Source: an uncultured Gammaproteobacteria bacterium (lineage in GTDB: Bacteria > Pseudomonadota > Gammaproteobacteria > Pseudomonadales > Oceanobacteraceae). From it: a DNA stretch of 64,000 nt. How positions within the stretch are numbered: the stretch's first letter is position 1; each line of letters starts with the position of its first letter. Below the pieces are notes generated by a model. The model was not told the DNA's origin. It saw nothing but the letters and a program-made list of their open reading frames with translations, and did not search any database. Shown in pieces: positions 7,790 through 51,967 of this stretch. Location: contig CAWKOX010000033.1 of the NCBI GenBank assembly GCA_963851095.1, positions 179,312-243,311 on the forward strand. Direction: 5' to 3'. The translations under genes and the position numbers were made by a program.

Positions 7790-8815
7790 TTAGTTGTTCG
7801 CGTGCAGCTCTTCGTTCAACTGAATCGCAGACTTGTTTGTCACACATTCAACTGCGCCAGAGATAGAGTTACGACGGAAAAGAAGATCCGACTTACCTGC
7901 TAAATCACGGCCTTTCACAGTTTCTACAACATTCTTAGCATCGTCTAAGACCAGAATCTTAGTACCGGCTGTAATGTACAAACCAGATTCGATGGTGCAA
8001 CGATCGCCCATTGGGATACCGGTACCGGCGTTAGCGCCTAATAAGCAGTTTTCGCCCACAGAAATAATGATGTTACCACCGCCAGAAAGCGTGCCCATAG
8101 TCGAGCAACCGCCGCCTAGGTCAGAACCGTTACCAACAACAACACCAGCAGAAATACGACCTTCAACCATAGAAACACCCAACGTTCCGGCGTTAAAGTT
8201 AACGAAGCCTTCGTGCATTACGGTTGTGCCTTCACCAATGTGTGCGCCTAAACGAACACGAGCGGTATGCGCAATACGAACGCCGCTTGGTACAACGTAG
8301 TCAGTCATGCGTGGGAATTTATCCACAGAATTGACGCTTAGTAGTTCGCCTTTTAAACGTGCTTGTAACTGTGCTTCTGGCAATTCAGCTAGGTCGATTG
8401 CGCCTAGGTTTGTCCAAGCAACGTTTGGTAATAGGCCAAACATACCATCTAGGTTAATGCCGTGTGGCTTAACTAAACGGTGAGATAATAAATGAAGCTT
8501 TAAATACACTTCAGGGGTAGAAGCCGACTGAGCATCAGATTCTAAAACCGTTACAACGACTGGCTTCTGACTTTCAGTACACGCGCGCGCTAGCTTAGCT
8601 TGTTCTGGTGCAACGGCTTCTAGTGCTGCTGCTAGGGCTTCTAGTTCACCGCCATCAACTTCAACAGCTTGGTTGCCACCTTCATAGCCGATAGCATCTT
8701 TTGCCGCAGCAATGATGTCAGCGCTTGGCTGAAAAAGAGGGGCTTGGTAATAAACTTCTAACCATTCGCCTTTTGCGTTTTTTGTGCCTAAGCCAATAGC
8801 AAATGCAGTGCTCAT
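7790..8815 (-). CDS. dapD: 2,3,4,5-tetrahydropyridine-2,6-dicarboxylate N-succinyltransferase (long form)
   Basis: 341 aa. C-terminal left-handed beta-helix hexapeptide repeats (..GA.IGEGT.V.....VN.NAGT.G..MVEGRIS.GVVVG..SD.GGG). Length matches the roughly 340-aa pseudomonad-type DapD. Confidence 0.9.
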   Translation of the reverse strand: MSTAFAIGLGTKNAKGEWLEVYYQAPLFQPSADIIAAAKDAIGYEGGNQAVEVDGGELEALAAALEAVAPEQAKLARACTESQKPVVVTVLESDAQSASTPEVYLKLHLLSHRLVKPHGINLDGMFGLLPNVAWTNLGAIDLAELPEAQLQARLKGELLSVNSVDKFPRMTDYVVPSGVRIAHTARVRLGAHIGEGTTVMHEGFVNFNAGTLGVSMVEGRISAGVVVGNGSDLGGGCSTMGTLSGGGNIIISVGENCLLGANAGTGIPMGDRCTIESGLYITAGTKILVLDDAKNVVETVKGRDLAGKSDLLFRRNSISGAVECVTNKSAIQLNEELHANN

Positions 8816-8874
8816 AATAAAATCCTTACTTTAAAAAGTGAATAAAAAGGGTGAATAAATAGAAAACAGGTTAA

Positions 8875-9225
8875 TTAGGAATTAACAAAATCCTGATAAT
8901 CTTCGGCTTTAAAGCCTAATAATTTGTTACTTGCATCATCTACCAATAATGGGCGTTTGATGATGGAAGTATTCTCTAACATGATCTCGATAGCAGACGC
9001 TTGGTCGATAGAGTCTTTAACGTCTTCAGGAAGCTTGCGCCAAGTGGTTCCGCGCTTATTAATTAATGCTTCCCAACCTAAGTCTGCGACCCAAGAATCT
9101 AGAGCTTCTGCAGTTAGCCCGTCTTTTTTATAATCGTGAAACTGGTAATCAATACCTTCCGCTTCTAGCCACTTGCGGGCTTTCTTAATGGTATCGCAGT
9201 TCTTAATGCCAAACATTGTGATCAT
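8875..9225 (-). CDS. ArsC/Spx-family reductase-like protein (YffB type)
   Basis: 116 aa. FGIKNCDT.KKARKWL....I.Y.FHDYKK.G and KRPLL are typical of YffB. Confidence 0.8.
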   Translation of the reverse strand: MITMFGIKNCDTIKKARKWLEAEGIDYQFHDYKKDGLTAEALDSWVADLGWEALINKRGTTWRKLPEDVKDSIDQASAIEIMLENTSIIKRPLLVDDASNKLLGFKAEDYQDFVNS

Positions 9226-9372
9226 AATTGCCCTTGTTGCGCCTGGTGAGCTGCTGGATATGAAAATTGGATCGGTATATTAACAAAATGTGATCTGTTT
9301 TTCACACATTGAGTATTGTGTTTACCCTATTAATGAAAATACACTAGCGTTATTATTGTTTTTATTCGTTAT

Positions 9373-10050
9373 ATGAATTTTAAAAGAGTTCTGCTGTTAA
9401 TGCGTAAGCTTGTTTTATTTCTGTTTTTTTCTGCTCTATTTCTGTTGTATCCCTGTATCAGCGATTCGCCAATTGTGGAACGCATTACGACAGGAGAAGT
9501 ACTTAAAAGTGCCAAAAACTTCTTTGCGTTTGAACAGTCTGCTAGCCATGAAAATATACCAAGTGATATCCAAAATAAGAATCGTGGCTTGCTAAACGAT
9601 CATCCAGCAAAGAATGCGAGTGAACATCGGGAAAAAGCTGCTGTAGAAATCGCTGAAGGCAATGCCGAAGATAGTCAAGATGATAGTACTGAAAATAGTG
9701 CTGAAAGTAGCACCGAAGACCGTCACGAAAGCCTTGAAGTAAGTGCAGGTGAAGGGAGTTTAAATGCCACGTTCGAACCTGTAGCAGAAGCGCCCAAAAG
9801 ACTGCTCGACCTAACTCTGCCTCAATTAGTTGACGATGTGCTTGATATAAAAATCTTCAAGTATGAATATAAAAGTATGCTACCTAATCTGTTCACGCCT
9901 AAGACGGTTGAAGAGGAGAGGGACAGAACGTCTTTTGGTGGCCGAATCTTAATGGAAGAAGGATTTGAAGATCGGGAAGAATATCGTTTACAGGATATTC
10001 GTGGGTCAATTGAAGGCGCTGAATTGACCCTTGAGGTAAAAACAAACTAG
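9373..10050 (+). CDS. hypothetical secreted acidic protein
   Basis: Hydrophobic N-terminal signal-like segment, then an E/D/S-rich low-complexity middle. I recognise no motif. Confidence 0.4.
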   Translation: MNFKRVLLLMRKLVLFLFFSALFLLYPCISDSPIVERITTGEVLKSAKNFFAFEQSASHENIPSDIQNKNRGLLNDHPAKNASEHREKAAVEIAEGNAEDSQDDSTENSAESSTEDRHESLEVSAGEGSLNATFEPVAEAPKRLLDLTLPQLVDDVLDIKIFKYEYKSMLPNLFTPKTVEEERDRTSFGGRILMEEGFEDREEYRLQDIRGSIEGAELTLEVKTN

Positions 10051-10051
10051 C

Positions 10052-10933
10052 TTAGTTAGCTGCTAAGCATAGCGCCATCCATTGCTCAATACCGGCGCTG
10101 CGGAATTTTTGTTGGTGTAAAATAAAATAGAACTGTCTCTCAAAGTTGCGCTGCGGCACTGAGAGGCGCACCAAACTACCGCGTTTAAATGCATCTTCTA
10201 ACGTTATCTGTGATAAACAGCCAATTCCTAAATTCGCTTCAACCGCGCGCTTAATTGCTTCGGTATGCTGCAGCTCATGAGCAATGGTGAGGTTTGGCAG
10301 AATGCCATGCATCGCGCGCTCAAACGCTTGGCGGGTACCAGAACCTGCTTCACGCAAAATCCATTGAGCAGCGATTAGGTCTTCATCATTGATGCTCTCT
10401 TTATTAGCCAGGGGATGGTTGGGGCTACAGAAAACGGCGAGCTCATCATCACGCCATGGAATAACCTCTAAATCAGAATGTTGTAACTCCCCCTCAATCA
10501 AGCCAATGTCCAAATCAAAATTCAATACCTTCTGGCTGATACTGGCCGTATTGGCTACTTCGAGGCTGATATTCGCGTTGGGCTGCTGACGCATCATGTC
10601 GGCCATGATATTGACCGCAAGGTAGTTACCAATCGACAAGGTTGCGCCAATTTTTAAATGCCCCGCGTCGGCATGTTTTAACAGGGTTTGCTCTAAATCC
10701 GCCGCTTGGGCCAATAAACTTTCCGCCTTAGGGCGAATCAGACGCCCTTGCTCATTTAACTGTAAGCGCTTACCAATACGATCAAACAGCTGAACATCGA
10801 ACTGCTGCTCTAATTCTTTTAAGGCAGAACTGGCTGCACTCTGGGAGAGATTCAATGCTTGTGCAGCCTTACTAACATTCTGCTGGTGGGCAATGCCCAG
10901 AAAGACTTCAAGTTGGCGAAGGGTATAGCGCAT
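10052..10933 (-). CDS. LysR-family transcriptional regulator, divergent from fpr (FinR-like arrangement)
   Basis: 293 aa. N-terminal wHTH (LRQLEVF....QQNVSKAAQALNLSQSA.S..LKELE) and a LysR substrate-binding domain. Its position divergent from ferredoxin-NADP reductase mirrors finR-fprA of Pseudomonas. Confidence 0.8.
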   Translation of the reverse strand: MRYTLRQLEVFLGIAHQQNVSKAAQALNLSQSAASSALKELEQQFDVQLFDRIGKRLQLNEQGRLIRPKAESLLAQAADLEQTLLKHADAGHLKIGATLSIGNYLAVNIMADMMRQQPNANISLEVANTASISQKVLNFDLDIGLIEGELQHSDLEVIPWRDDELAVFCSPNHPLANKESINDEDLIAAQWILREAGSGTRQAFERAMHGILPNLTIAHELQHTEAIKRAVEANLGIGCLSQITLEDAFKRGSLVRLSVPQRNFERQFYFILHQQKFRSAGIEQWMALCLAAN

Positions 10934-10960
10934 GGTGATTCATTATCTTATATAGGTAAA

Positions 10961-10979: not shown

Positions 10980-11115
10980 ATAATCTGTTTTTCTGATTAA
11001 TAAGTCTAGGGTATTCTGGTATCAGTTAATAATTAATGACTTAAGGTCTAATTCAAAAGGCAAAGTCAAAATCAACAAGTCAAAATGAAAAAGAGTGAGG
11101 CAAGTCGTGAGCAAA

Positions 11116-11880
11116 ATGATTCGTGAGACTGTCACCAAGGTACACCATTGGAATGACACACTGTTTAGCTTTAATACCACCCGTAATCAGGGCTTACGTT
11201 TCAAAAATGGCCACTTCACTATGATAGGGCTAGAGATTGATAATAAGCCATTATTGCGTGCCTACAGCATAGCCAGTGCTAACTATGAAGAAGAAATGGA
11301 ATTCTTTAGTATTAAAGTGCAAGACGGCCCACTGACTAAGCATCTACAAAATTTAAAAGTAGGTGATGAAATTTTGGTAGGCACTAAGCCGGTAGGCACT
11401 TTGATTGCTGATCATTTATTGCCGGGTAAAAACTTGTACTTATTGAGTACAGGCACAGGTTTAGCACCTTTTATGAGCATCATTAAAGATCCTGAAATTT
11501 ATGAACAATTTGATAACGTCATTTTAACCCACGGCGTACGCGAAACGTCTGAATTGGCGTATCAGCACTTCATTGAAGAAGAACTGCCAAATAACGAATA
11601 CTTTGGTGATGTTGTACGCCAAAAGTTGAAGTACTACCCAACAGTGACGCGTGAAGCCTTTCGTAATCAGGGACGTTTAACCGACTTGATTGAAAGTGGA
11701 AAGTTATGTGCAGATCTAGGTTTGCCAGAAATTAACCTAGAACATGACCGCTTTATGTTGTGTGGTAGTCCAAGCATGCTGAAGGATTTCTGTGAGATTC
11801 TGGATAACCGCGGGTTTGAAGAAGCACGCCAAGGTGAACAGGGGCACTATGTGATTGAACGGGCTTTTGTTGAGAAGTAA
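11116..11880 (+). CDS. fpr: ferredoxin--NADP(+) reductase
   Basis: V.HWND.LFSF...R...LRF.NG.F.MIGL, RAYSIAS, LLSTGTGLAPF and a C-terminal ..Y.IE.AFVEK match bacterial subclass-I Fpr. The ATG at 11116 is preferred; GTGs at 11095 and 11107 are possible. Confidence 0.9.
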   Translation: MIRETVTKVHHWNDTLFSFNTTRNQGLRFKNGHFTMIGLEIDNKPLLRAYSIASANYEEEMEFFSIKVQDGPLTKHLQNLKVGDEILVGTKPVGTLIADHLLPGKNLYLLSTGTGLAPFMSIIKDPEIYEQFDNVILTHGVRETSELAYQHFIEEELPNNEYFGDVVRQKLKYYPTVTREAFRNQGRLTDLIESGKLCADLGLPEINLEHDRFMLCGSPSMLKDFCEILDNRGFEEARQGEQGHYVIERAFVEK

Positions 11881-11906
11881 ATGACCCTTATTTTTATGAC
11901 ATGGAG

Positions 11907-12305
11907 TTAATTCCTAATTGTGTAATTATCTAAGTATGTGCACTGGATTTTGACATCCCAGGGAGCATAAATATTTATAAAAGATAAACCAGGCATAACA
12001 CCATTCATTACGGTATCAACCGCGAAAGTTGTTAAGCCTGCTTTGACCCCAAATTCAACGGTCACTTTCTTCCATGGCTGACCATGGCAACTTTCATAAA
12101 GATTAACAGGGTAGCTTATTTCGACCATGCCATTAAGCGCCGTATCGTGCCAATGAGAATACCTTTTAAGTTTTGTATTAACTTTATCTGTTGTTTTTTG
12201 AGTGAAATGCATTGTGCTACATCCCGTAATAAATAATATTATGAAAGATGATGTTAGAATTTTGAAAACAGAGATGTCATTATTCATAGGTAGGTATCTC
12301 TTCAC
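11907..12305 (-). CDS. small lipoprotein, Bor-like (paralogue B)
   Basis: Lipobox FITGC. The C-terminal half has SCHG ... NIYAPW..KIQC, resembling the Bor/Iss layout (C-G-G ... IYTP ... VYC). It is the last gene of the PhoPQ-like operon and overlaps the preceding gene end. Confidence 0.5.
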   Translation of the reverse strand: MKRYLPMNNDISVFKILTSSFIILFITGCSTMHFTQKTTDKVNTKLKRYSHWHDTALNGMVEISYPVNLYESCHGQPWKKVTVEFGVKAGLTTFAVDTVMNGVMPGLSFINIYAPWDVKIQCTYLDNYTIRN

Positions 12306-12612
12306 ACCAAACTTTTGCTGTTCTTGGGGCGTATATAAATAGGGTGAAAAATCCTCGAATCCAATCGGATGATGTCATTACAGCTTGCATTTGTTCAACT
12401 CTCCGATCTCCACAAACGTCACTGGTATTAATTTCGTATTCTCCCATTAATCCCCAAAAATAATACTCCTTACTATCGCTATAATCTGGAGCTCCTACTT
12501 CTTTAGGTCCGCCATAAGGGCGCATGGTTACACTTGAACAGGCTGATAGCAAAAAAACACAAAATAGTAGGCTGCATTTTTTGATCTGACTCTTTATTAT
12601 ATTTTTATACAT
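12280..12612 (-). CDS. small lipoprotein, Bor-like (paralogue A)
   Basis: Lipobox LLSAC. YFWGLMGEYEI..SDVCGDRRV......FFTLFIYAPRTAKVWC parallels lambda Bor (FF.SG.GQ....a..iCGG..V......iTLGIYTP..a.VYC). Confidence 0.55.
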   Translation of the reverse strand: MYKNIIKSQIKKCSLLFCVFLLSACSSVTMRPYGGPKEVGAPDYSDSKEYYFWGLMGEYEINTSDVCGDRRVEQMQAVMTSSDWIRGFFTLFIYAPRTAKVWCEEIPTYE

Positions 12613-12633
12613 ATCTAACTAACTTAAATGAAA

Positions 12634-13995
12634 TTAATCATGGATTATTGTTTGTGTCTTAAAAGATATTTTAAAGCAAGCGCCACCTAAAATAGAATCA
12701 GAAATATGAATGCTAGCTTGATAAGCATCTAATATCTCCTTAACGAGTGCCAAGCCCATTCCTTGTCCCGCTTCTACTGTATCTAGACGTATGCCTCGTT
12801 GCAATATTACATCTCTTTGTAAGGCTGGAATACCAAGGCCGTCATCTAAAAAATATAGCTCAAGGTTATTGTCAGAACTACAGATCTTTATCGCAACAGT
12901 ACTTTTGCAATATTTACAGGCATTATCAGTTAAGTTTCCGAGTACCTCAATTAGATCATTTTCATCACCCTGAAAATAACACTCTTTATCTATAGTTAAT
13001 TTAATTGAGATATCTTTTTCAGCATATACTTTGGACATTGCATCAATAATAGAGTTGATTATTGGGGATATAGGGACCCTATGGATAAGTAGACCTTGGA
13101 GGCCATGTACAGCACGTTGAAGTTGGTAGCGAATAGTGCTCGTCATTTTATTGACTTGGGATTGCAAGTAATGGTGGTCTTCTCTATTAATATTTTTTTT
13201 GTATATGATTCCTTGTATAACACTTATGGGTGTTTTTAAACTATGAGATAGGTCGGCAAGGGAGTTTCGATAGCGATCACGTTGATTTTTTTCAATTTTC
13301 AAAAGATGATTCAGGTTTGAGGTTAGTGGGCGAAGCTCACTTGGATAATTATCAGCCAGCATGTGTTTATTTCCCATTTGAATATCTTTTAAATCGATAC
13401 TTAACTGGTGTAAAGGTTTTAATCCCCAACGTAAAATAATTAATTGCATTATAAATAAAAAAATAGCGGCAGAGCATAAAAGAATAATAAGTGTATTTTT
13501 ATATTCTTTGAGATCATTATTAATAGTTTTAATATTCTCAATAAGTAGAATATTAAAGATATTTTCTATTCCGCTTTCTGCTTCTCCGCCTAAGGAAACG
13601 CCGTATCGAGCTATAAATAATTCTTCATTAGCATTTTTAGCAAGGCTGTACTGCCATTGGCCTACAGTTATTGGCGAAGGTGAGAAGTTGGGGAGATTTT
13701 TTGCCGATATCGAGGCCCATATACGCTGATGTTTTTCATTCAATATTATGGCATATATCCCCGAATTAGGTAGGTTGAAAAGTTGATGTGAAATCTTTTC
13801 ATCAAGTAATAGTTGGTTATTCTGAAACTCAATCTGTGCAAGAATACTATAGCTATGTACTTTTAATCGTTCTTTTAGTGCTTTAGTTTGGACAACTGAG
13901 AAAAATTCCATTAATAAAAAACCACCGCTGATTGCTAGAGAAATCAGTATGATAAACGTTATTAATAATAATCGGACTTTCAATGAATTCAGCAT
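12634..13995 (-). CDS. sensor histidine kinase, PhoQ-like
   Basis: 453 aa. Two TM segments flank a periplasmic domain of about 140 aa, followed by HAMP. The H-box region LADNYP.EL..L..NLN.LL..E....RYRNSLADLSHSLKTP..VIQG is very close to the PhoQ H-box. ATP-lid N/G boxes are present (NL.DNA.KY, DDG.GI, G.G.GLA). Confidence 0.8.
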   Translation of the reverse strand: MLNSLKVRLLLITFIILISLAISGGFLLMEFFSVVQTKALKERLKVHSYSILAQIEFQNNQLLLDEKISHQLFNLPNSGIYAIILNEKHQRIWASISAKNLPNFSPSPITVGQWQYSLAKNANEELFIARYGVSLGGEAESGIENIFNILLIENIKTINNDLKEYKNTLIILLCSAAIFLFIMQLIILRWGLKPLHQLSIDLKDIQMGNKHMLADNYPSELRPLTSNLNHLLKIEKNQRDRYRNSLADLSHSLKTPISVIQGIIYKKNINREDHHYLQSQVNKMTSTIRYQLQRAVHGLQGLLIHRVPISPIINSIIDAMSKVYAEKDISIKLTIDKECYFQGDENDLIEVLGNLTDNACKYCKSTVAIKICSSDNNLELYFLDDGLGIPALQRDVILQRGIRLDTVEAGQGMGLALVKEILDAYQASIHISDSILGGACFKISFKTQTIIHD

Positions 13996-13998
13996 ATT

Positions 13999-14670
13999 TT
14001 AAAAAGACGCATTAAATTGATAGCCTCGGCCTCGAAGCGTTATTATTGGATTAACCCCCTCACTGTTCACTAATTTCTTTCGTAAACGTGCAACCAATAC
14101 TTCTACAACATTACTGTCACGATCAAAATCTTGCTCATATAAGTATTCTGTTAAGCGTTTTTTTGAAATAACCTCAGTTGGGCGCCGCATCATGTATTCG
14201 AGAATTTTGTACTCAAAGGCGGTTAGGTCGATTTTTTTATCTAAAAGGGTAACTAGCTGACTTTCTATGTTAAGTGTAATTGGACCTACCGTTAATTGTG
14301 CAGAATAGCCAGTGGCTCTTCTTAATAATGCTCGACTTCTGGCTACCAGTTCTTCTATATGGAAAGGTTTTTCCATATAGTCGTCAGCGCCAGATTCAAG
14401 CCCCTCTACTTTTGCTTTCCAACCACCGCGTGCAGTCAGTATCAGGATGGGAAATTGACAGCCTTCATTTCTTAACCGGCTGATTAATTCTATGCCATTA
14501 ATTTTGGGTAGGCCAATGTCTATAATTGCTAAGTCAAAGTCATATTCACTTGCTTGATAATAACCCTCAAGGCCATCATTTGCTTTTTGGCAAGAATACC
14601 CTTCAGCTGATAAACCATCTAATAGATGTTGTTGTAAGTTGAGGTCGTCTTCAATAACTAGAATTTTCAT
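13999..14670 (-). CDS. OmpR-family response regulator, PhoP-like
   Basis: 223 aa. MKILVIEDD, phospho-acceptor D in AIIDIGLP, LTAR..W..KVEGL.SGADDY..KPFHIEEL, LTAFEY, and a winged-helix C-terminus TLRG.GY. The layout mirrors E. coli PhoP. Confidence 0.85.
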   Translation of the reverse strand: MKILVIEDDLNLQQHLLDGLSAEGYSCQKANDGLEGYYQASEYDFDLAIIDIGLPKINGIELISRLRNEGCQFPILILTARGGWKAKVEGLESGADDYMEKPFHIEELVARSRALLRRATGYSAQLTVGPITLNIESQLVTLLDKKIDLTAFEYKILEYMMRRPTEVISKKRLTEYLYEQDFDRDSNVVEVLVARLRKKLVNSEGVNPIITLRGRGYQFNASF

Positions 14671-15158
14671 TGTTTAGCCTCATTCATATTTATGGGTATC
14701 TTTGGGAGGGTAAATAATTGACCACTAAAAGCATGAACAGTAAAAACAGAAACGGTTCCATTATCAGATAGTAGTTTTATTTTATAGTGCGGAGGAGGTC
14801 CAGTTTGAAATTGATTACGTAAGATTTTTCCTGGAAATTTTTCTAAAACAGAGTTTGTAGCATGTTGCGCAGTAATTATCTGTGGATTGGAAGGGGTTTT
14901 TGTCGGGCGTATTTGACTGTTAGATTCTTGATGAATTTCGCGTTCAATCCATTGAGTGAATGGAGAAAAGATACTTTCTATCCATTTTGTTGAGGGTGCA
15001 ATTTTTTTCTCTACCCAGCCTTCTTCAACTGAATCATTAATTGAGCTGTTACTTTTGACGGGCACATCTGTATTCTCAGCCTGTAAATTATAGGATGCTA
15101 GTAAGGTGCTTGTATAGAATATAAGAATACATAGCTTACATCCTCGGCTTTTTCTCAC
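14667..15158 (-). CDS. secreted PepSY-domain-like protein, first gene of the two-component operon
   Basis: Signal peptide (..LLASYNLQA/EN). The C-terminus A...VLEKFPGKIL........YKIKLLSDNGTVSVFTVHAFSGQL fits the PepSY pattern. Its stop overlaps the response-regulator start (ATGA, 14667-14670). Confidence 0.5.
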   Translation of the reverse strand: MRKSRGCKLCILIFYTSTLLASYNLQAENTDVPVKSNSSINDSVEEGWVEKKIAPSTKWIESIFSPFTQWIEREIHQESNSQIRPTKTPSNPQIITAQHATNSVLEKFPGKILRNQFQTGPPPHYKIKLLSDNGTVSVFTVHAFSGQLFTLPKIPINMNEAKQ

Positions 15159-15348
15159 AGTAGTATCGGTCTCGTTGTGGATTTACATTCAGGCATTGAA
15201 ATTAAAATAAGAATAATAGCTTAATCTTTGCTGAATTAGAAATCCTTAAGTTTTTAATCCCGTTAAGCTTAGGTTCAGATTGTATTTGGTATGGTGGTTA
15301 GAATAATAACTAATATGCTTACTTTAGTGTAATTTAAAGGAGAGAAAT

Positions 15349-15528
15349 ATGTATACCGCTTACCATGAAATGCTTATTTTATTGCAACAGCAAATTCAGG
15401 CAAAAATCCGACAAAATGCTCCGAAATCCATTGGTAAAGATGAAAGGTATATTGCCTTAGAAGAAAAAAATGAAGGCTCTGGAAAGATAAAAACAGATAG
15501 TCTTCATTCAGCTTGTGTTCAGCTTTAG
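15349..15528 (+). CDS. 59-codon small ORF below the ORF-track cutoff, first gene of the divergent lipoprotein operon
   Basis: ATG at 15349 follows a strong SD (aaaGGAGagaaatATG). It reads MYTAYHEMLILLQQQIQAKIRQNAPKSIGKDERYIALEEKNEGSGKIKTDSLHSACVQL with a stop at 15526-15528. It has no signal peptide and a predicted helical N-terminus. Confidence 0.35.
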   Translation: MYTAYHEMLILLQQQIQAKIRQNAPKSIGKDERYIALEEKNEGSGKIKTDSLHSACVQL

Positions 15529-15578
15529 TCACTACAATAGCGACTGAAATTGTTTAGATACTAATACGAGAATTTCTT

Positions 15579-15995
15579 ATGTTACGAATAATAATGATGA
15601 TATTAATACTGATTTGCTCGGGATGCGCAAGGCTTGATCATGTTCAGATTAACGATATAGATCAGAGCCAAGGTGATTCAGTACCTATTTCTGTAACGAT
15701 TAGTCAGTTAGGAGTTAATGCGGCTGATATTACTTCAATAACGGGGGATCTAATACCGTCTGGGGGGACACAAGAGAGTCTAGGTGATCTTGCTACTGTT
15801 CTTGCGCTGATAAATATGGGGCCCATGACGGGCAATCCTATTTACAATGATCGCTATGCAGAAAATATTTTACATGAACTTCACCAGCAGTGTCCTACTG
15901 GTAGGATTACAGGCATTCGAAATATTCGTGAAGGCTTATCCTATGGCCCCGTTAGCGGTGAAATTATGCGTATAAATGCAGATTGTATTTTATAA
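15579..15995 (+). CDS. small two-cysteine lipoprotein (paralogue C)
   Basis: Signal with ..ICSGC. C-terminal QQCPTGRITGI....ADC is shared with paralogue D (KCQGGRLTGI....GYC). Confidence 0.5.
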   Translation: MLRIIMMILILICSGCARLDHVQINDIDQSQGDSVPISVTISQLGVNAADITSITGDLIPSGGTQESLGDLATVLALINMGPMTGNPIYNDRYAENILHELHQQCPTGRITGIRNIREGLSYGPVSGEIMRINADCIL

Positions 15996-16010
15996 ATTTT
16001 GGAGAGTACT

Positions 16011-16328
16011 ATGAAAAAAATACTTACGACGTTGTCATCTTTAATTGCAGTTAGTTTGTTATCAGGGTGTGTTAGCTTGAACTCTGTATCACTGACCCAG
16101 TTACCTGAAAAGCGAGAGAAGTTAGTAACAGCGAGTGCATCTGATTTTTTATTTTTAGGCTTTACCACACAAAATGATTTTGTTGGTGAGGCTGTTAGTA
16201 ACTTGAAAGAAAAATGCCAAGGTGGGAGGCTTACGGGCATTTTAACTAAACATCAAACAACATCCTATTTGTTGATATTTAAGCGGGAAGTTATTGCTAG
16301 TGGTTACTGTAATATTGTGGAGGAATAA
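16011..16328 (+). CDS. small two-cysteine lipoprotein (paralogue D)
   Basis: ATG at 16011 follows GGAG. Lipobox LLSGC. FLFLGFTTQNDFVGEAVSNLKEKCQGGRLTGI...SGYC. Confidence 0.55.
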   Translation: MKKILTTLSSLIAVSLLSGCVSLNSVSLTQLPEKREKLVTASASDFLFLGFTTQNDFVGEAVSNLKEKCQGGRLTGILTKHQTTSYLLIFKREVIASGYCNIVEE

Positions 16329-16331
16329 GAA

Positions 16332-16649
16332 ATGAAAGCCATATTCTTTTTAACACTGATATTGCCGTTGATATTAATGACTGGCTGTACTCATAGTATT
16401 CATATGGTTCATACCGATGGCTTTGAATCAGCTGTAAATATTCAAGATAAAATACAATATGTGGAAGCTGTAGCAACTCAGAATGTAGTTTTTTATTTTG
16501 CTTTTGATACAAACTATGTAGAAGAGGCAAAAGAACAATTAGAGCAGAAGTGTAAAGGCCCGCTTTTAGCGGTAAGTACTCAATACTCAACTTCTCATGG
16601 ATTTTTTCATTGGACGAATAAAATCTTAATGAAAGGCTTGTGTGGATGA
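16332..16649 (+). CDS. small two-cysteine lipoprotein (paralogue E)
   Basis: ATG at 16332 follows GGAGGA, 3 nt after the preceding stop. Lipobox LMTGC. VVFYFAFDTNYVEEAKEQLEQKCKG...KGLCG aligns with paralogue D. Confidence 0.55.
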   Translation: MKAIFFLTLILPLILMTGCTHSIHMVHTDGFESAVNIQDKIQYVEAVATQNVVFYFAFDTNYVEEAKEQLEQKCKGPLLAVSTQYSTSHGFFHWTNKILMKGLCG

Positions 16650-16808
16650 AAGTAAACTCCTTAGTGGATGAAAAATTCAATCACTAAGGATAAGATAAAT
16701 ATGTCAGGAAATAACCTAGCAAAATATCCCTTTTTCTTGCACACTCATCGTATACATACTTATTCTAACAAATTAAAAAATTACTGATTATCTCTGCAGG
16801 GACGTTCT

Positions 16809-17813
16809 ATGAAAGTATTTATCGCCATTCTGATTATTGCGCTATCGATGTCTATGTACCTTGGCCGACACTATATGGGCTTCGTCGATTTATCCCCAGA
16901 AGTGGTTAATAGTCGTTATGCCAATGAGGATTCTAAGTTTATCAAGCTTGGCGGTTTACAACAGGGCATTGAATTACATTACCGTGATGAAGGCTTAAGT
17001 GCTGCACAAAACCCAGAAGCACCTGTTTTGTTTTTATTGCACGGCATTATGGCCAGTTTGCATACTTGGGATGGCTGGGTCGAAAACCTTCAGAATGACT
17101 TCCGTATTATTCGTATCGATATTCCAGGATTTGGTTTAACAGGGCCTTATACTGATGGTATTTATAGTATAGAACGTACTATGGACATGCTTGATCAGTT
17201 AAGTAATGAGCTTAATATTGACTCTTTTTTCTTGGCAGGAAATTCCATGGGGGGTTATATTTCTTGGAATTTTGCGATTAATCATCCAGAAAAAGTTAAA
17301 CGTTTGATTCTGATCGACGCTGCGGGTTATTCATTTGAAATGCCAATGATGTTAAAGCTTCTAGATACTCCTGTATTGAAAGATAGTATGGCATTTATAA
17401 CCCCTAAGTTTGTTGTCACTCAGACATTAAACGAAGTGTATGGCGATGGTTCTAAAGTTACCGATACGACGATTGAACGTTATCATCAGATGATGTTACG
17501 TGAAGGCAATCGCCAAGCGGTTGTCAGTGTTTTACAGACGCTAACGGATATTAATACTGACGGTATTCAGCAAGTTAAAGTGCCAACGCTGATTCAGTGG
17601 GGTGAAAAAGATGCTTGGATACCGTTGGCACATGCTCAGCAATTTGCCGATGAAATTGAAGGGGCTAAGTTAATTACGTATCCAGGAGTCGGTCATATTC
17701 CGATGGAAGAAATTGCAGTTAAAACAGCTCAGGATGCAAAAAAGTTTTTGACGCGAGTAATAGAAGAGCCAAAAACAATCGCACCTAAACCAGTAACGCC
17801 TGTCGTTTTATAG
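16809..17813 (+). CDS. alpha/beta-fold hydrolase
   Basis: 334 aa. N-terminal TM/signal, HG oxyanion motif (LLHGIMAS), nucleophile elbow GNSMGG, and a C-terminal catalytic His (GVGHIP). Confidence 0.8.
   Translation: MKVFIAILIIALSMSMYLGRHYMGFVDLSPEVVNSRYANEDSKFIKLGGLQQGIELHYRDEGLSAAQNPEAPVLFLLHGIMASLHTWDGWVENLQNDFRIIRIDIPGFGLTGPYTDGIYSIERTMDMLDQLSNELNIDSFFLAGNSMGGYISWNFAINHPEKVKRLILIDAAGYSFEMPMMLKLLDTPVLKDSMAFITPKFVVTQTLNEVYGDGSKVTDTTIERYHQMMLREGNRQAVVSVLQTLTDINTDGIQQVKVPTLIQWGEKDAWIPLAHAQQFADEIEGAKLITYPGVGHIPMEEIAVKTAQDAKKFLTRVIEEPKTIAPKPVTPVVL

Positions 17814-51007: not shown

Positions 51008-51967
<960 letters not shown>

Follow-up and report, generated by a model that had tools for sequence, protein, structure and literature searches.

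A stretch of 64,000 nucleotides (nt), herein called the window, was analysed from contig CAWKOX010000033.1 (assembly GCA_963851095.1, positions 179,312 to 243,311) of an uncultured gammaproteobacterium. Between an fpr gene and a hydrolase gene, the window carries a 4.8 kb islet of nine genes in two divergent units. The minus-strand unit is tightly coupled and encodes, in this order, a PepSY protein, a PhoP-like response regulator, a PhoQ-like kinase, and the lipoproteins LipA and LipB. The plus-strand unit starts with a small open reading frame (sORF), followed by the lipoproteins LipC, LipD, and LipE. Comparison with the genus Oleispira, a marine oil-degrader and free-living psychrophile, shows that the islet is a strain-variable accessory region and a composite of two modules.

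Gene content and distribution of the islet

The features of the islet are listed below with their window coordinates; protein lengths are in amino acids (aa).
11880 to 16696, no strand: accessory islet; the blastn homology with the island-free Oleispira genome L003 ends at 11879 and restarts at 16697
11907 to 12287, minus strand: LipB, 126 aa from ATG 12287, reading frame extending to GTG 12305; divergent Bor-like lipoprotein
12280 to 12612, minus strand: LipA, 110 aa; Pfam PF06291 Lambda_Bor at 2.2e-17, 63.4 bits against a cut-off of 25
12634 to 13995, minus strand: PhoQ-like histidine kinase (HK), 453 aa; two transmembrane segments; periplasmic domain, about 135 aa
13999 to 14670, minus strand: PhoP-like regulator of the OmpR/PhoB family, 223 aa; Pfam Response_reg and Trans_reg_C
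14667 to 15158, minus strand: PepSY protein, 163 aa; Pfam PepSY at 0.003; signal-like N-terminus; ATGA-coupled to the regulator gene
15349 to 15528, plus strand: sORF, 59 codons; conserved N-terminal 23 residues MNTAYYDMLILLQQQTQALIRxNA and variable C-terminus
15579 to 15995, plus strand: LipC, 138 aa; first of the trio, LipD-like with an insert of about 40 residues and an invariant MGPxTGNP
16011 to 16328, plus strand: LipD, 105 aa; second of the trio, ATG supported by orthologues
16332 to 16649, plus strand: LipE, 105 aa; third of the trio, LipD paralogue
16658 to 16690, no strand: hairpin after the LipE stop with 15-nt arms and a 3-nt loop, without a T-run (repeat search)

The islet is rich in AT. 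In the full calculation, positions 11907-16680 contain 35.6% guanine plus cytosine (G+C), compared with 42.9% across the rest of the window and 43.1% in the flanks. This is the fifth lowest value among 1185 segments of the same size, and the minimum is located at 12051. The G+C content was below that of the flanks in every islet variant (38-40% versus 42-43%), and the window copy was the lowest. The original prediction, made by reading the sequence, had described the AT-rich islet from spot counts of 22-38% inside and 43-63% outside. The direction of this difference was verified, whereas its size was overestimated, with a real contrast of about 7 points. The limits given in that prediction (11907-16680) are nearly equal to those determined by comparison with L003.

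The PepSY and regulator genes overlap by 4 nt (ATGA), and gaps of 3 nt and 21 nt separate the regulator from the kinase and the kinase from LipA. LipA and LipB overlap by 8 nt when LipB is started at ATG 12287, or by 26 nt from GTG 12305; the ATG starts of LipB (12287) and LipD (16011) were chosen by orthologue alignments. The spacers are 15 nt between LipC and LipD and 3 nt between LipD and LipE. The predicted nine-gene map matches the map of open reading frames gene for gene, and its ATGA overlap, 21-nt gap, and 3/15-nt spacers were all recovered. Pfam and NCBIfam scans found no mobility domain (integrase or transposase) in the nine proteins, as had been predicted, and no direct repeats flanking the islet junctions were found by the L003 comparison and the repeat search. 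The hairpin at 16658-16690, which the terminator scan did not report, may mark where the LipCDE transcript ends. No RNA family was matched by Rfam across 11000-17500.

By a genome scan with the flanking fpr gene, the window was assigned to Oleispira. The islet is absent in five other Oleispira genomes (L003, L005, L006, L008, and L009), in which the hydrolase gene directly follows fpr; in L003, 173 bp take the place of 11880-16696. The whole nine-gene block was found at the same fpr/hydrolase junction in L004, L091, and five metagenomic contigs (L092-L095 and L097), and the two units are together and divergent in all seven of these complete variants. An eighth variant, L096, is a short contig that covers PepSY through LipA without flanks and ends within LipA. 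Five genomes without the islet and eight variants with islet sequence, together with the G+C content, bear out an accessory region of deviant composition whose presence at the fpr/hydrolase site varies among sister genomes. A metagenome scan with the kinase returned Oleispira-type islands and three unrelated kinases, and in that scan the sensor-plus-Bor arrangement was not found outside the genus.

The window copy is the outgroup for every island gene, with 72-76% identity to all the others for the HK and 68-71% for LipC. The window flanks, on the other hand, nest with L003, L004, and L005 (ThrE, 89-99%), and the presence and absence of the islet alternate inside this close clade. Thus, the history of the islet differs from the history of its flanks, and we read the islet as gained, lost, or exchanged by homologous recombination. 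An origin without horizontal acquisition was also considered, in which the block is ancestral to Oleispira at this site and was repeatedly deleted, and the low G+C content results from local mutation or selection. The constant junction fits such an origin, as do the lack of an integrase and of flanking repeats in the searches above and the divergence of the islet among the non-window variants (HK, 76-94%), which is similar to that of the right-flank genes. The outgroup position of the window copy over nested flanks, the alternation within a close clade, and the low G+C content kept in all variants argue against it, and the LipC-LipD-LipE trio is found in many unrelated contexts of other genera, so the trio moves. 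An ancestral block is therefore somewhat unlikely. It bears only on where the islet came from and does not conflict with the functional model proposed below.

The sORF is probably a real small protein. Seven of eight variants conserve its Shine-Dalgarno sequence AAGGAG, the start codon ATG, and the 23 codons at its head, and the variable columns fall at codon positions 1, 2, and 3 in the numbers 12, 9, and 21. The remainder varies in sequence and in length (51-74 aa). No match to the sORF was found in Pfam, NCBIfam, PHROG, or Rfam.

Two further observations were made at the left junction. In the window, fpr and LipB are convergent and 27 nt apart, with no terminator-like hairpin between them. 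In L003, fpr is followed immediately by a perfect hairpin, GATTCACCACGGAGG-ACC-TCCGTGGTGAATC, which belongs to the 173 bp segment (10786-10958); a motif resembling TTGTCCTAT occurs several times in this segment.

Sensor operon and lipoprotein families

The PepSY domain, which is weak in the window copy, was matched by Pfam in all seven orthologues (best 2.4e-6), and the orthologues keep a EEGWVEKKIAPPTQW motif. The protein is predicted to be secreted with a single PepSY domain. The best NCBIfam match of the regulator is PhoP (2.1e-61). The kinase matches the NCBIfam PhoQ family at 1.1e-73, over residues 154-450 only. Its HAMP domain is HAMP_PhoQ (PF26769, precomputed Pfam), and its catalytic domain matches the PhoQ structures 3cgy and 1id0 at 2e-36, with the next kinase at 1.5e-11. 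PhoQ_Sensor was not found in the kinase by Pfam. As judged from these matches, the cytoplasmic part of the kinase is PhoQ-type and its periplasmic sensor is not recognisably PhoQ-type.

The original prediction held that all five lipoproteins are Bor-like. This proved right for LipA and LipB, whereas LipC, LipD, and LipE are treated here as a separate family. By its Pfam match, LipA is a true Bor-family protein; it also matches PHROG 260, 'Bor-like outer membrane protein', at 9.2e-8 and has 257 relatives among representative proteins. LipB is more distant. The window LipB is below the Lambda_Bor gathering threshold and has no Pfam match, and 6 of 17 LipB orthologues match Lambda_Bor weakly (best 0.0025). 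The LipB family has 22 members, all at least 50% identical and one of them recorded from Oleispira sp., and the lipobox ITGC together with Cys67 and Cys116 is invariant in 17 homologues. When LipB was compared by hhalign with a profile of about 100 diverse Bor proteins, probabilities of 88.5% with mature sequences and 95.5% with signal peptides were obtained. The alignment is full-length, with the three cysteines and the IYAP...C tail in register; in the Bor family alignment, the lipobox Cys and two later Cys are invariant. LipB is thus assigned as a divergent Bor relative. Compared with lambda Bor, Iss, and E. coli BorD (PF06291), LipA passes the family threshold and LipB shows the same three cysteines in a full-length alignment; the LipA and LipB genes differ in that they are placed inside a sensor operon, not in a prophage. 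Unlike for Bor and Iss, serum resistance is not the relevant phenotype here because the host is a free-living marine psychrophile.

LipC, LipD, and LipE are related to each other. LipD and LipE were matched by BLASTP at 1.6e-6 and by hhalign at 98.5% (E 1.4e-15, mature sequences). LipC was matched to LipD at 96-97% (E 4e-9 to 4e-10) and to LipE at 89%. LipE always follows LipD in related loci. The 58 homologues of LipC and the 104 homologues of LipD (Oleispira, Bermanella, Moritella, Thalassolituus, and others) carry no Pfam domain. In LipC, Cys16 and Cys105 are invariant and Cys136 is present in at least 90% of homologues; in LipD, Cys20, Cys69, and Cys100 are invariant. No Pfam or NCBIfam family was found for LipC, LipD, or LipE. 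Searches of Pfam, NCBIfam, PHROG, and PADLOC with LipB to LipE, the sORF, and the PepSY protein returned no family beyond the weak Bor matches of LipB.

The structure of LipD was predicted by AlphaFold2 with a mean confidence (pLDDT) of 84.6 and a beta-beta-alpha-beta-beta order, and the model of LipC was poor (pLDDT 62). The LipD model gave no match below E 0.001 in BFVD and PDB by Foldseek, in a search that retained the signal-peptide helix and may have been hurt by it. The Bor and LipD profiles found no solved relative among the PDB sequences.

Taken as a whole, the prediction is that all five lipoproteins are Bor homologues and that a single acquisition brought in the nine genes as a self-contained, Bor-based unit for surface remodelling. 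The predicted lipobox and two later cysteines, one internal and one near the C-terminus, are indeed present and conserved in LipA to LipE; this pattern is shared by the five and is not Bor-specific. The hhalign value between Bor and LipD is 90.5% with signal peptides and falls to 26% with mature sequences, and on mature sequences Bor gave nothing with LipC or with LipE alone. When Bor plus LipB was aligned with LipD plus LipE (mature sequences), 61% was reached (E 7.9e-5), colinear over the full length with the three cysteines in register, and the score of 28.7 was above the best of 150 column shuffles (21.5). None of 59 LipD homologues, however, matches Lambda_Bor in Pfam even at E<=10, and the LipD model finds no significant counterpart in the structure searches. 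These results point to LipC, LipD, and LipE as a separate uncharacterised family, which may be a very remote relative of Bor.

The distribution of the trio also speaks against a single unit. At least eight other contexts have LipC, LipD, and LipE on their own and in unchanged order, with differing neighbours and with no sensor or Bor gene. The hosts are Moritella yayanosii, Thalassolituus pacificus, Bermanella, and several marine Gammaproteobacteria. In the Oleispira islet, this cassette is thus combined with a sensor-plus-Bor operon, and the predicted self-contained nature of the unit was not confirmed. Common Bor ancestry with joint acquisition of all nine genes is accordingly held to be improbable.

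Several neighbours of the stand-alone cassettes were recorded. A gene of about 140 aa with a BTP domain (PF05232), which we take to be of the PACE efflux-transporter type, adjoins the cassette in Moritella (L083, 6854-7276) and in Bermanella (L088, 8638-9054), and the Bermanella gene is accompanied by a LysR regulator. Directly downstream of the cassette, Moritella yayanosii has a gene (L083, 8725-9663) for DUF535 (PF04393), presumably the VirK/YbjX family that is PhoP-regulated in enterics. This neighbour may be a second hint that the cassette is linked to PhoP-type regulons. In the Bermanella-like loci L088/L089 and L103, the cassette occupies one conserved position directly after holC (DNA polymerase III chi), with valS a few genes (2-3 kb) beyond. 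The holC-valS position may be an older chromosomal home of the cassette.

PhoP-type boxes in the divergent promoter region

The divergent intergenic region was aligned for eight island variants. Little is conserved except short blocks, which are direct repeats of a hexamer at 11-nt spacing and are of the Pseudomonas PhoP type (GTTCAG-N5-RTTCAG). The following three boxes are found in the window.
15220 to 15236, minus strand: PhoP-type box 1, ATTCAG-CAAAG-ATTAAG; faces the PepSY-regulator-kinase operon
15262 to 15278, plus strand: PhoP-type box 2, GTTAAG-CTTAG-GTTCAG; faces sORF-LipCDE, one mismatch to GTTCAGNNNNNRTTCAG
15506 to 15522, plus strand: PhoP-type box 3, ATTCAG-CTTGT-GTTCAG; 73 nt before the LipC ATG

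The window was scanned with the published PhoP consensus of P. aeruginosa, GTTCAGNNNNNRTTCAG (PMC3156716). With at most one mismatch to this consensus, two matches were found in 64 kb against 0.59 expected. Both of them, boxes 2 and 3, lie upstream of LipCDE. With at most two mismatches, 13 were found against 8.5 expected window-wide, so the looser motif is not enriched. One further box-like site, at 51037, lies inside an apparent thioredoxin-reductase-type gene, as read by eye from the translation, and was dismissed as chance.

Box 1 is 10 nt upstream of a -10-like TATTTT (15209-15204). Seven of the eight island variants have it at the corresponding place in the alignment, such as ATTCAGCTTAGGTTCAG in L092, L095, and L097. 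It has two mismatches in the window and one in five variants. Box 2 is conserved in the variants and is 11 nt upstream of a -10-like TATGGT, which is TATAAT in 5 of 7 variants. Box 3 is 10 nt upstream of TACAAT (15533-15538), and an independent repeat search recovered it as TTCAGCTT twice at 11-nt spacing. At the box 3 site, a mismatch-free box is present in L004, L095, and L097; L004 carries this perfect box without the sORF. A mismatch-free box is also present upstream of the stand-alone cassette L101. The distance of 10-11 nt between box and hexamer in all three cases is the layout of an activator site that replaces the -35 element. The sigma-70 and terminator consensus scan performed no better than shuffles, an outcome to be anticipated when promoters depend on an activator.

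In variants whose surrounding intergenic DNA has diverged, the boxes are largely retained, and this conservation supports a wiring of the regulator to the lipoproteins, as does the PhoP-type box before LipC in the stand-alone cassettes L101 and L102 described below. The predicted connection between the regulator and the lipoprotein operons thus appears to exist through these putative sites. It might be argued instead that the two units are mere neighbours and that the box-like repeats are non-functional or are read by another PhoP/PmrA-type regulator encoded elsewhere in the genome. The trio lives without a sensor in most genomes, and the looser motif is not enriched in the window. L101 and L102, the stand-alone cassettes most similar to that of Oleispira, have a PhoP-type box 65-71 nt before LipC as the only such match in their own loci, and no sensor lies next to them; evidently, a regulator from another locus can serve. 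In the islet, however, about 300 bp hold all three boxes, which occur in both orientations with fixed spacing to -10-like hexamers, and they stay conserved where the flanking intergenic DNA does not. One box faces the operon of the regulator itself, which is the usual layout of autoregulation, and every complete variant keeps the two units together and divergent. A merely accidental neighbourhood is therefore considered quite unlikely.

A palindrome centred on CTTAAG (AAATCCTTAAG / CTTAAGTTTTT) was observed at 15240-15255, in the interval that separates box 1 from box 2; it is not conserved in the other variants. CTTAAG is the PmrA half-site of Pseudomonas. A PmrA-type reading of the boxes is disfavoured since their cross-variant consensus is GTTCAG.

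Proposed model and known counterparts

A joint model is proposed for the two-module Oleispira islet, with a probability of roughly 0.6. In module 1, on the minus strand, the secreted PepSY protein, the PhoP-like regulator, the PhoQ-like kinase, LipA, and LipB would be expressed as one operon. In module 2, on the plus strand, the small ORF is followed by the paralogous LipC, LipD, and LipE. The kinase and PepSY pair would sense an envelope signal, and the phosphorylated regulator would most likely bind the three direct-repeat boxes. Box 1 would provide autoregulation and the expression of the Bor proteins LipA and LipB, and boxes 2 and 3 would allow activation of sORF-LipCDE by the regulator. 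The outer membrane would then be loaded with five small lipoproteins, probably disulfide-bonded, which may stabilise the envelope. The outer-membrane location is predicted because none of the five has Asp at position +2.

Several points weigh against this model. The regulator scores 207.3 bits against a PhoP equivalog cut-off of 336, and the kinase 248.6 bits against a PhoQ equivalog cut-off of 497 (NCBIfam), so both are below the level for equivalogs. The 137 periplasmic residues of the kinase matched no PDB chain at E<=10, among structures that presumably include PhoQ sensor domains. As the sensor domain has no similarity to solved structures, an input of low Mg2+ or antimicrobial peptides cannot be assumed. 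The boxes are putative PhoP-type sites recognised from the sequence; box 3 is missing in L092-L094, and boxes 1 and 2 are degenerate in L004. The PhoP-type box was not found in six of the eight stand-alone cassettes, which are the more distant ones, and control of the trio by this regulator would therefore be lineage-specific and not intrinsic. To our knowledge, the mechanism of action of Bor is not established.

A more far-reaching version of the model is that LipC, LipD, and LipE form an undescribed, co-evolving outer-membrane hetero-oligomer, very remotely akin to Bor, which stabilises or remodels the membrane when the sensor fires, and that the conserved 23-residue head of the sORF, which lies behind a PhoP box, is a feedback modulator of the pathway, comparable to MgrB for PhoQ. 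This version is regarded as doubtful.

A role of the lipoproteins in excluding phages or competitors by masking surface receptors, as the phage-encoded lipoproteins Cor and Llp do, is highly improbable. In its favour, Bor is a prophage-borne family (PHROG 260), and the islet varies among strains and evolves fast, as defence loci often do. Against it, no islet protein has a meaningful match to a PADLOC defence model, the neighbourhood has no phage genes, and an envelope sensor of the PhoPQ/DbfQRS type is not a known trigger of exclusion systems.

The proposed model has close precedents. In Vibrio cholerae DbfQRS (VC1637-VC1639), the PepSY protein binds the periplasmic sensor domain of a PhoQ-like kinase. 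The system is autoregulated and is activated by outer-membrane damage, lipopolysaccharide defects, and polymyxin B, and PepSY-regulator-kinase modules are reported to be widespread (PMC12714742). The resemblance of VC1638/39 to PhoPQ has also been described (PMC5636140). When compared by layout and published description, the islet shares with DbfQRS a gene for a small secreted protein with a single PepSY domain, directly upstream of the regulator and kinase genes in one operon, and a PhoP/PhoQ-like arrangement of domains. Autoregulation, as in DbfQRS, is probable here in view of box 1. The shift of the kinase toward phosphatase activity upon PepSY binding may, only by analogy, apply to the islet PepSY protein. 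The differences are that the Oleispira operon runs on into two Bor-family genes, that it faces a three-lipoprotein operon, and that the unit sits in a strain-variable islet.

A second counterpart is PhoP-PhoQ of P. aeruginosa, which is encoded in the operon oprH-phoP-phoQ. Both operons encode an envelope protein, OprH there and the Bor lipoproteins in the islet. The HAMP and catalytic domains of the islet kinase are PhoQ-type, and the best family of the regulator is PhoP. The islet differs in that its two proteins are below the equivalog cut-offs, the periplasmic domain lacks similarity to the PhoQ sensor, and a PepSY gene, not oprH, heads the operon. The direct-repeat box (PMC3156716) and its 11-nt periodicity are the same.

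A further counterpart is SlyB, an outer-membrane lipoprotein that is induced by PhoP and protects envelope stability during stress. The islet may follow the same logic, in which a PhoPQ-type signal raises small outer-membrane lipoproteins; this is a functional analogy, and no sequence relation between SlyB and the islet lipoproteins was detected. The E. coli Bor homologue gene borD and slyB are both in the PhoP regulon (PMC5740661).

The novelty seen in the original prediction is reduced by these precedents, since borD is in the PhoP regulon (PMC5740661) and modules of the DbfQRS type have been described (PMC12714742). With DbfQRS sensors, Pseudomonas-type PhoP boxes, and PhoP-controlled Bor as close precedents, the islet ranks as a variant of known systems. 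What is new is the arrangement of known parts together with three PhoP-type boxes in a divergent promoter region, and not a new kind of system. The islet represents a compact regulon for a sensor of the PhoPQ/DbfQRS type outside the enteric and Vibrio models. Within 4.8 kb, it combines a single sensor operon with three candidate boxes and has five lipoproteins as outputs, and natural strains with and without it are available. A Bor gene in the sensor operon of a non-pathogen argues that the native role of Bor-type proteins is general envelope protection, not serum resistance. The three-lipoprotein cassette, unannotated and widespread in cold marine Gammaproteobacteria (Oleispira, Bermanella, Moritella, and Thalassolituus), is the part of the islet most worth following. 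The PhoP box on this cassette in some lineages gives it a first functional handle, probably as an envelope-stress output.

Some observations concern the genes around the islet. The alpha/beta hydrolase (16809-17813) matches Pfam PF10142, 'PhoPQ-activated pathogenicity-related protein', at 25.4 bits (cut-off 20.3); the match spans a short segment about the nucleophile elbow. As the hydrolase gene is also present in island-free genomes, this match probably reflects generic hydrolase similarity. The hydrolase gene adjoins the ThrE gene in the window; in the island-free L008, about 1.4 kb extra (11929-13370) separates the two, and the neighbourhood of the islet seems to be generally prone to insertions and deletions. 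Upstream of a LysR gene, an open reading frame of 225 aa (window 9373-10050) combines a signal-like N-terminus with an acidic body rich in Ser and Glu. It lies at an AT-rich part of the window (8600-9600), with 35-40% G+C around it. This reading frame is hypervariable, with 85% identity in L003 and 29-56% over partial lengths in other Oleispira, and the LysR and fpr genes beside it stay 90-99% identical among Oleispira.

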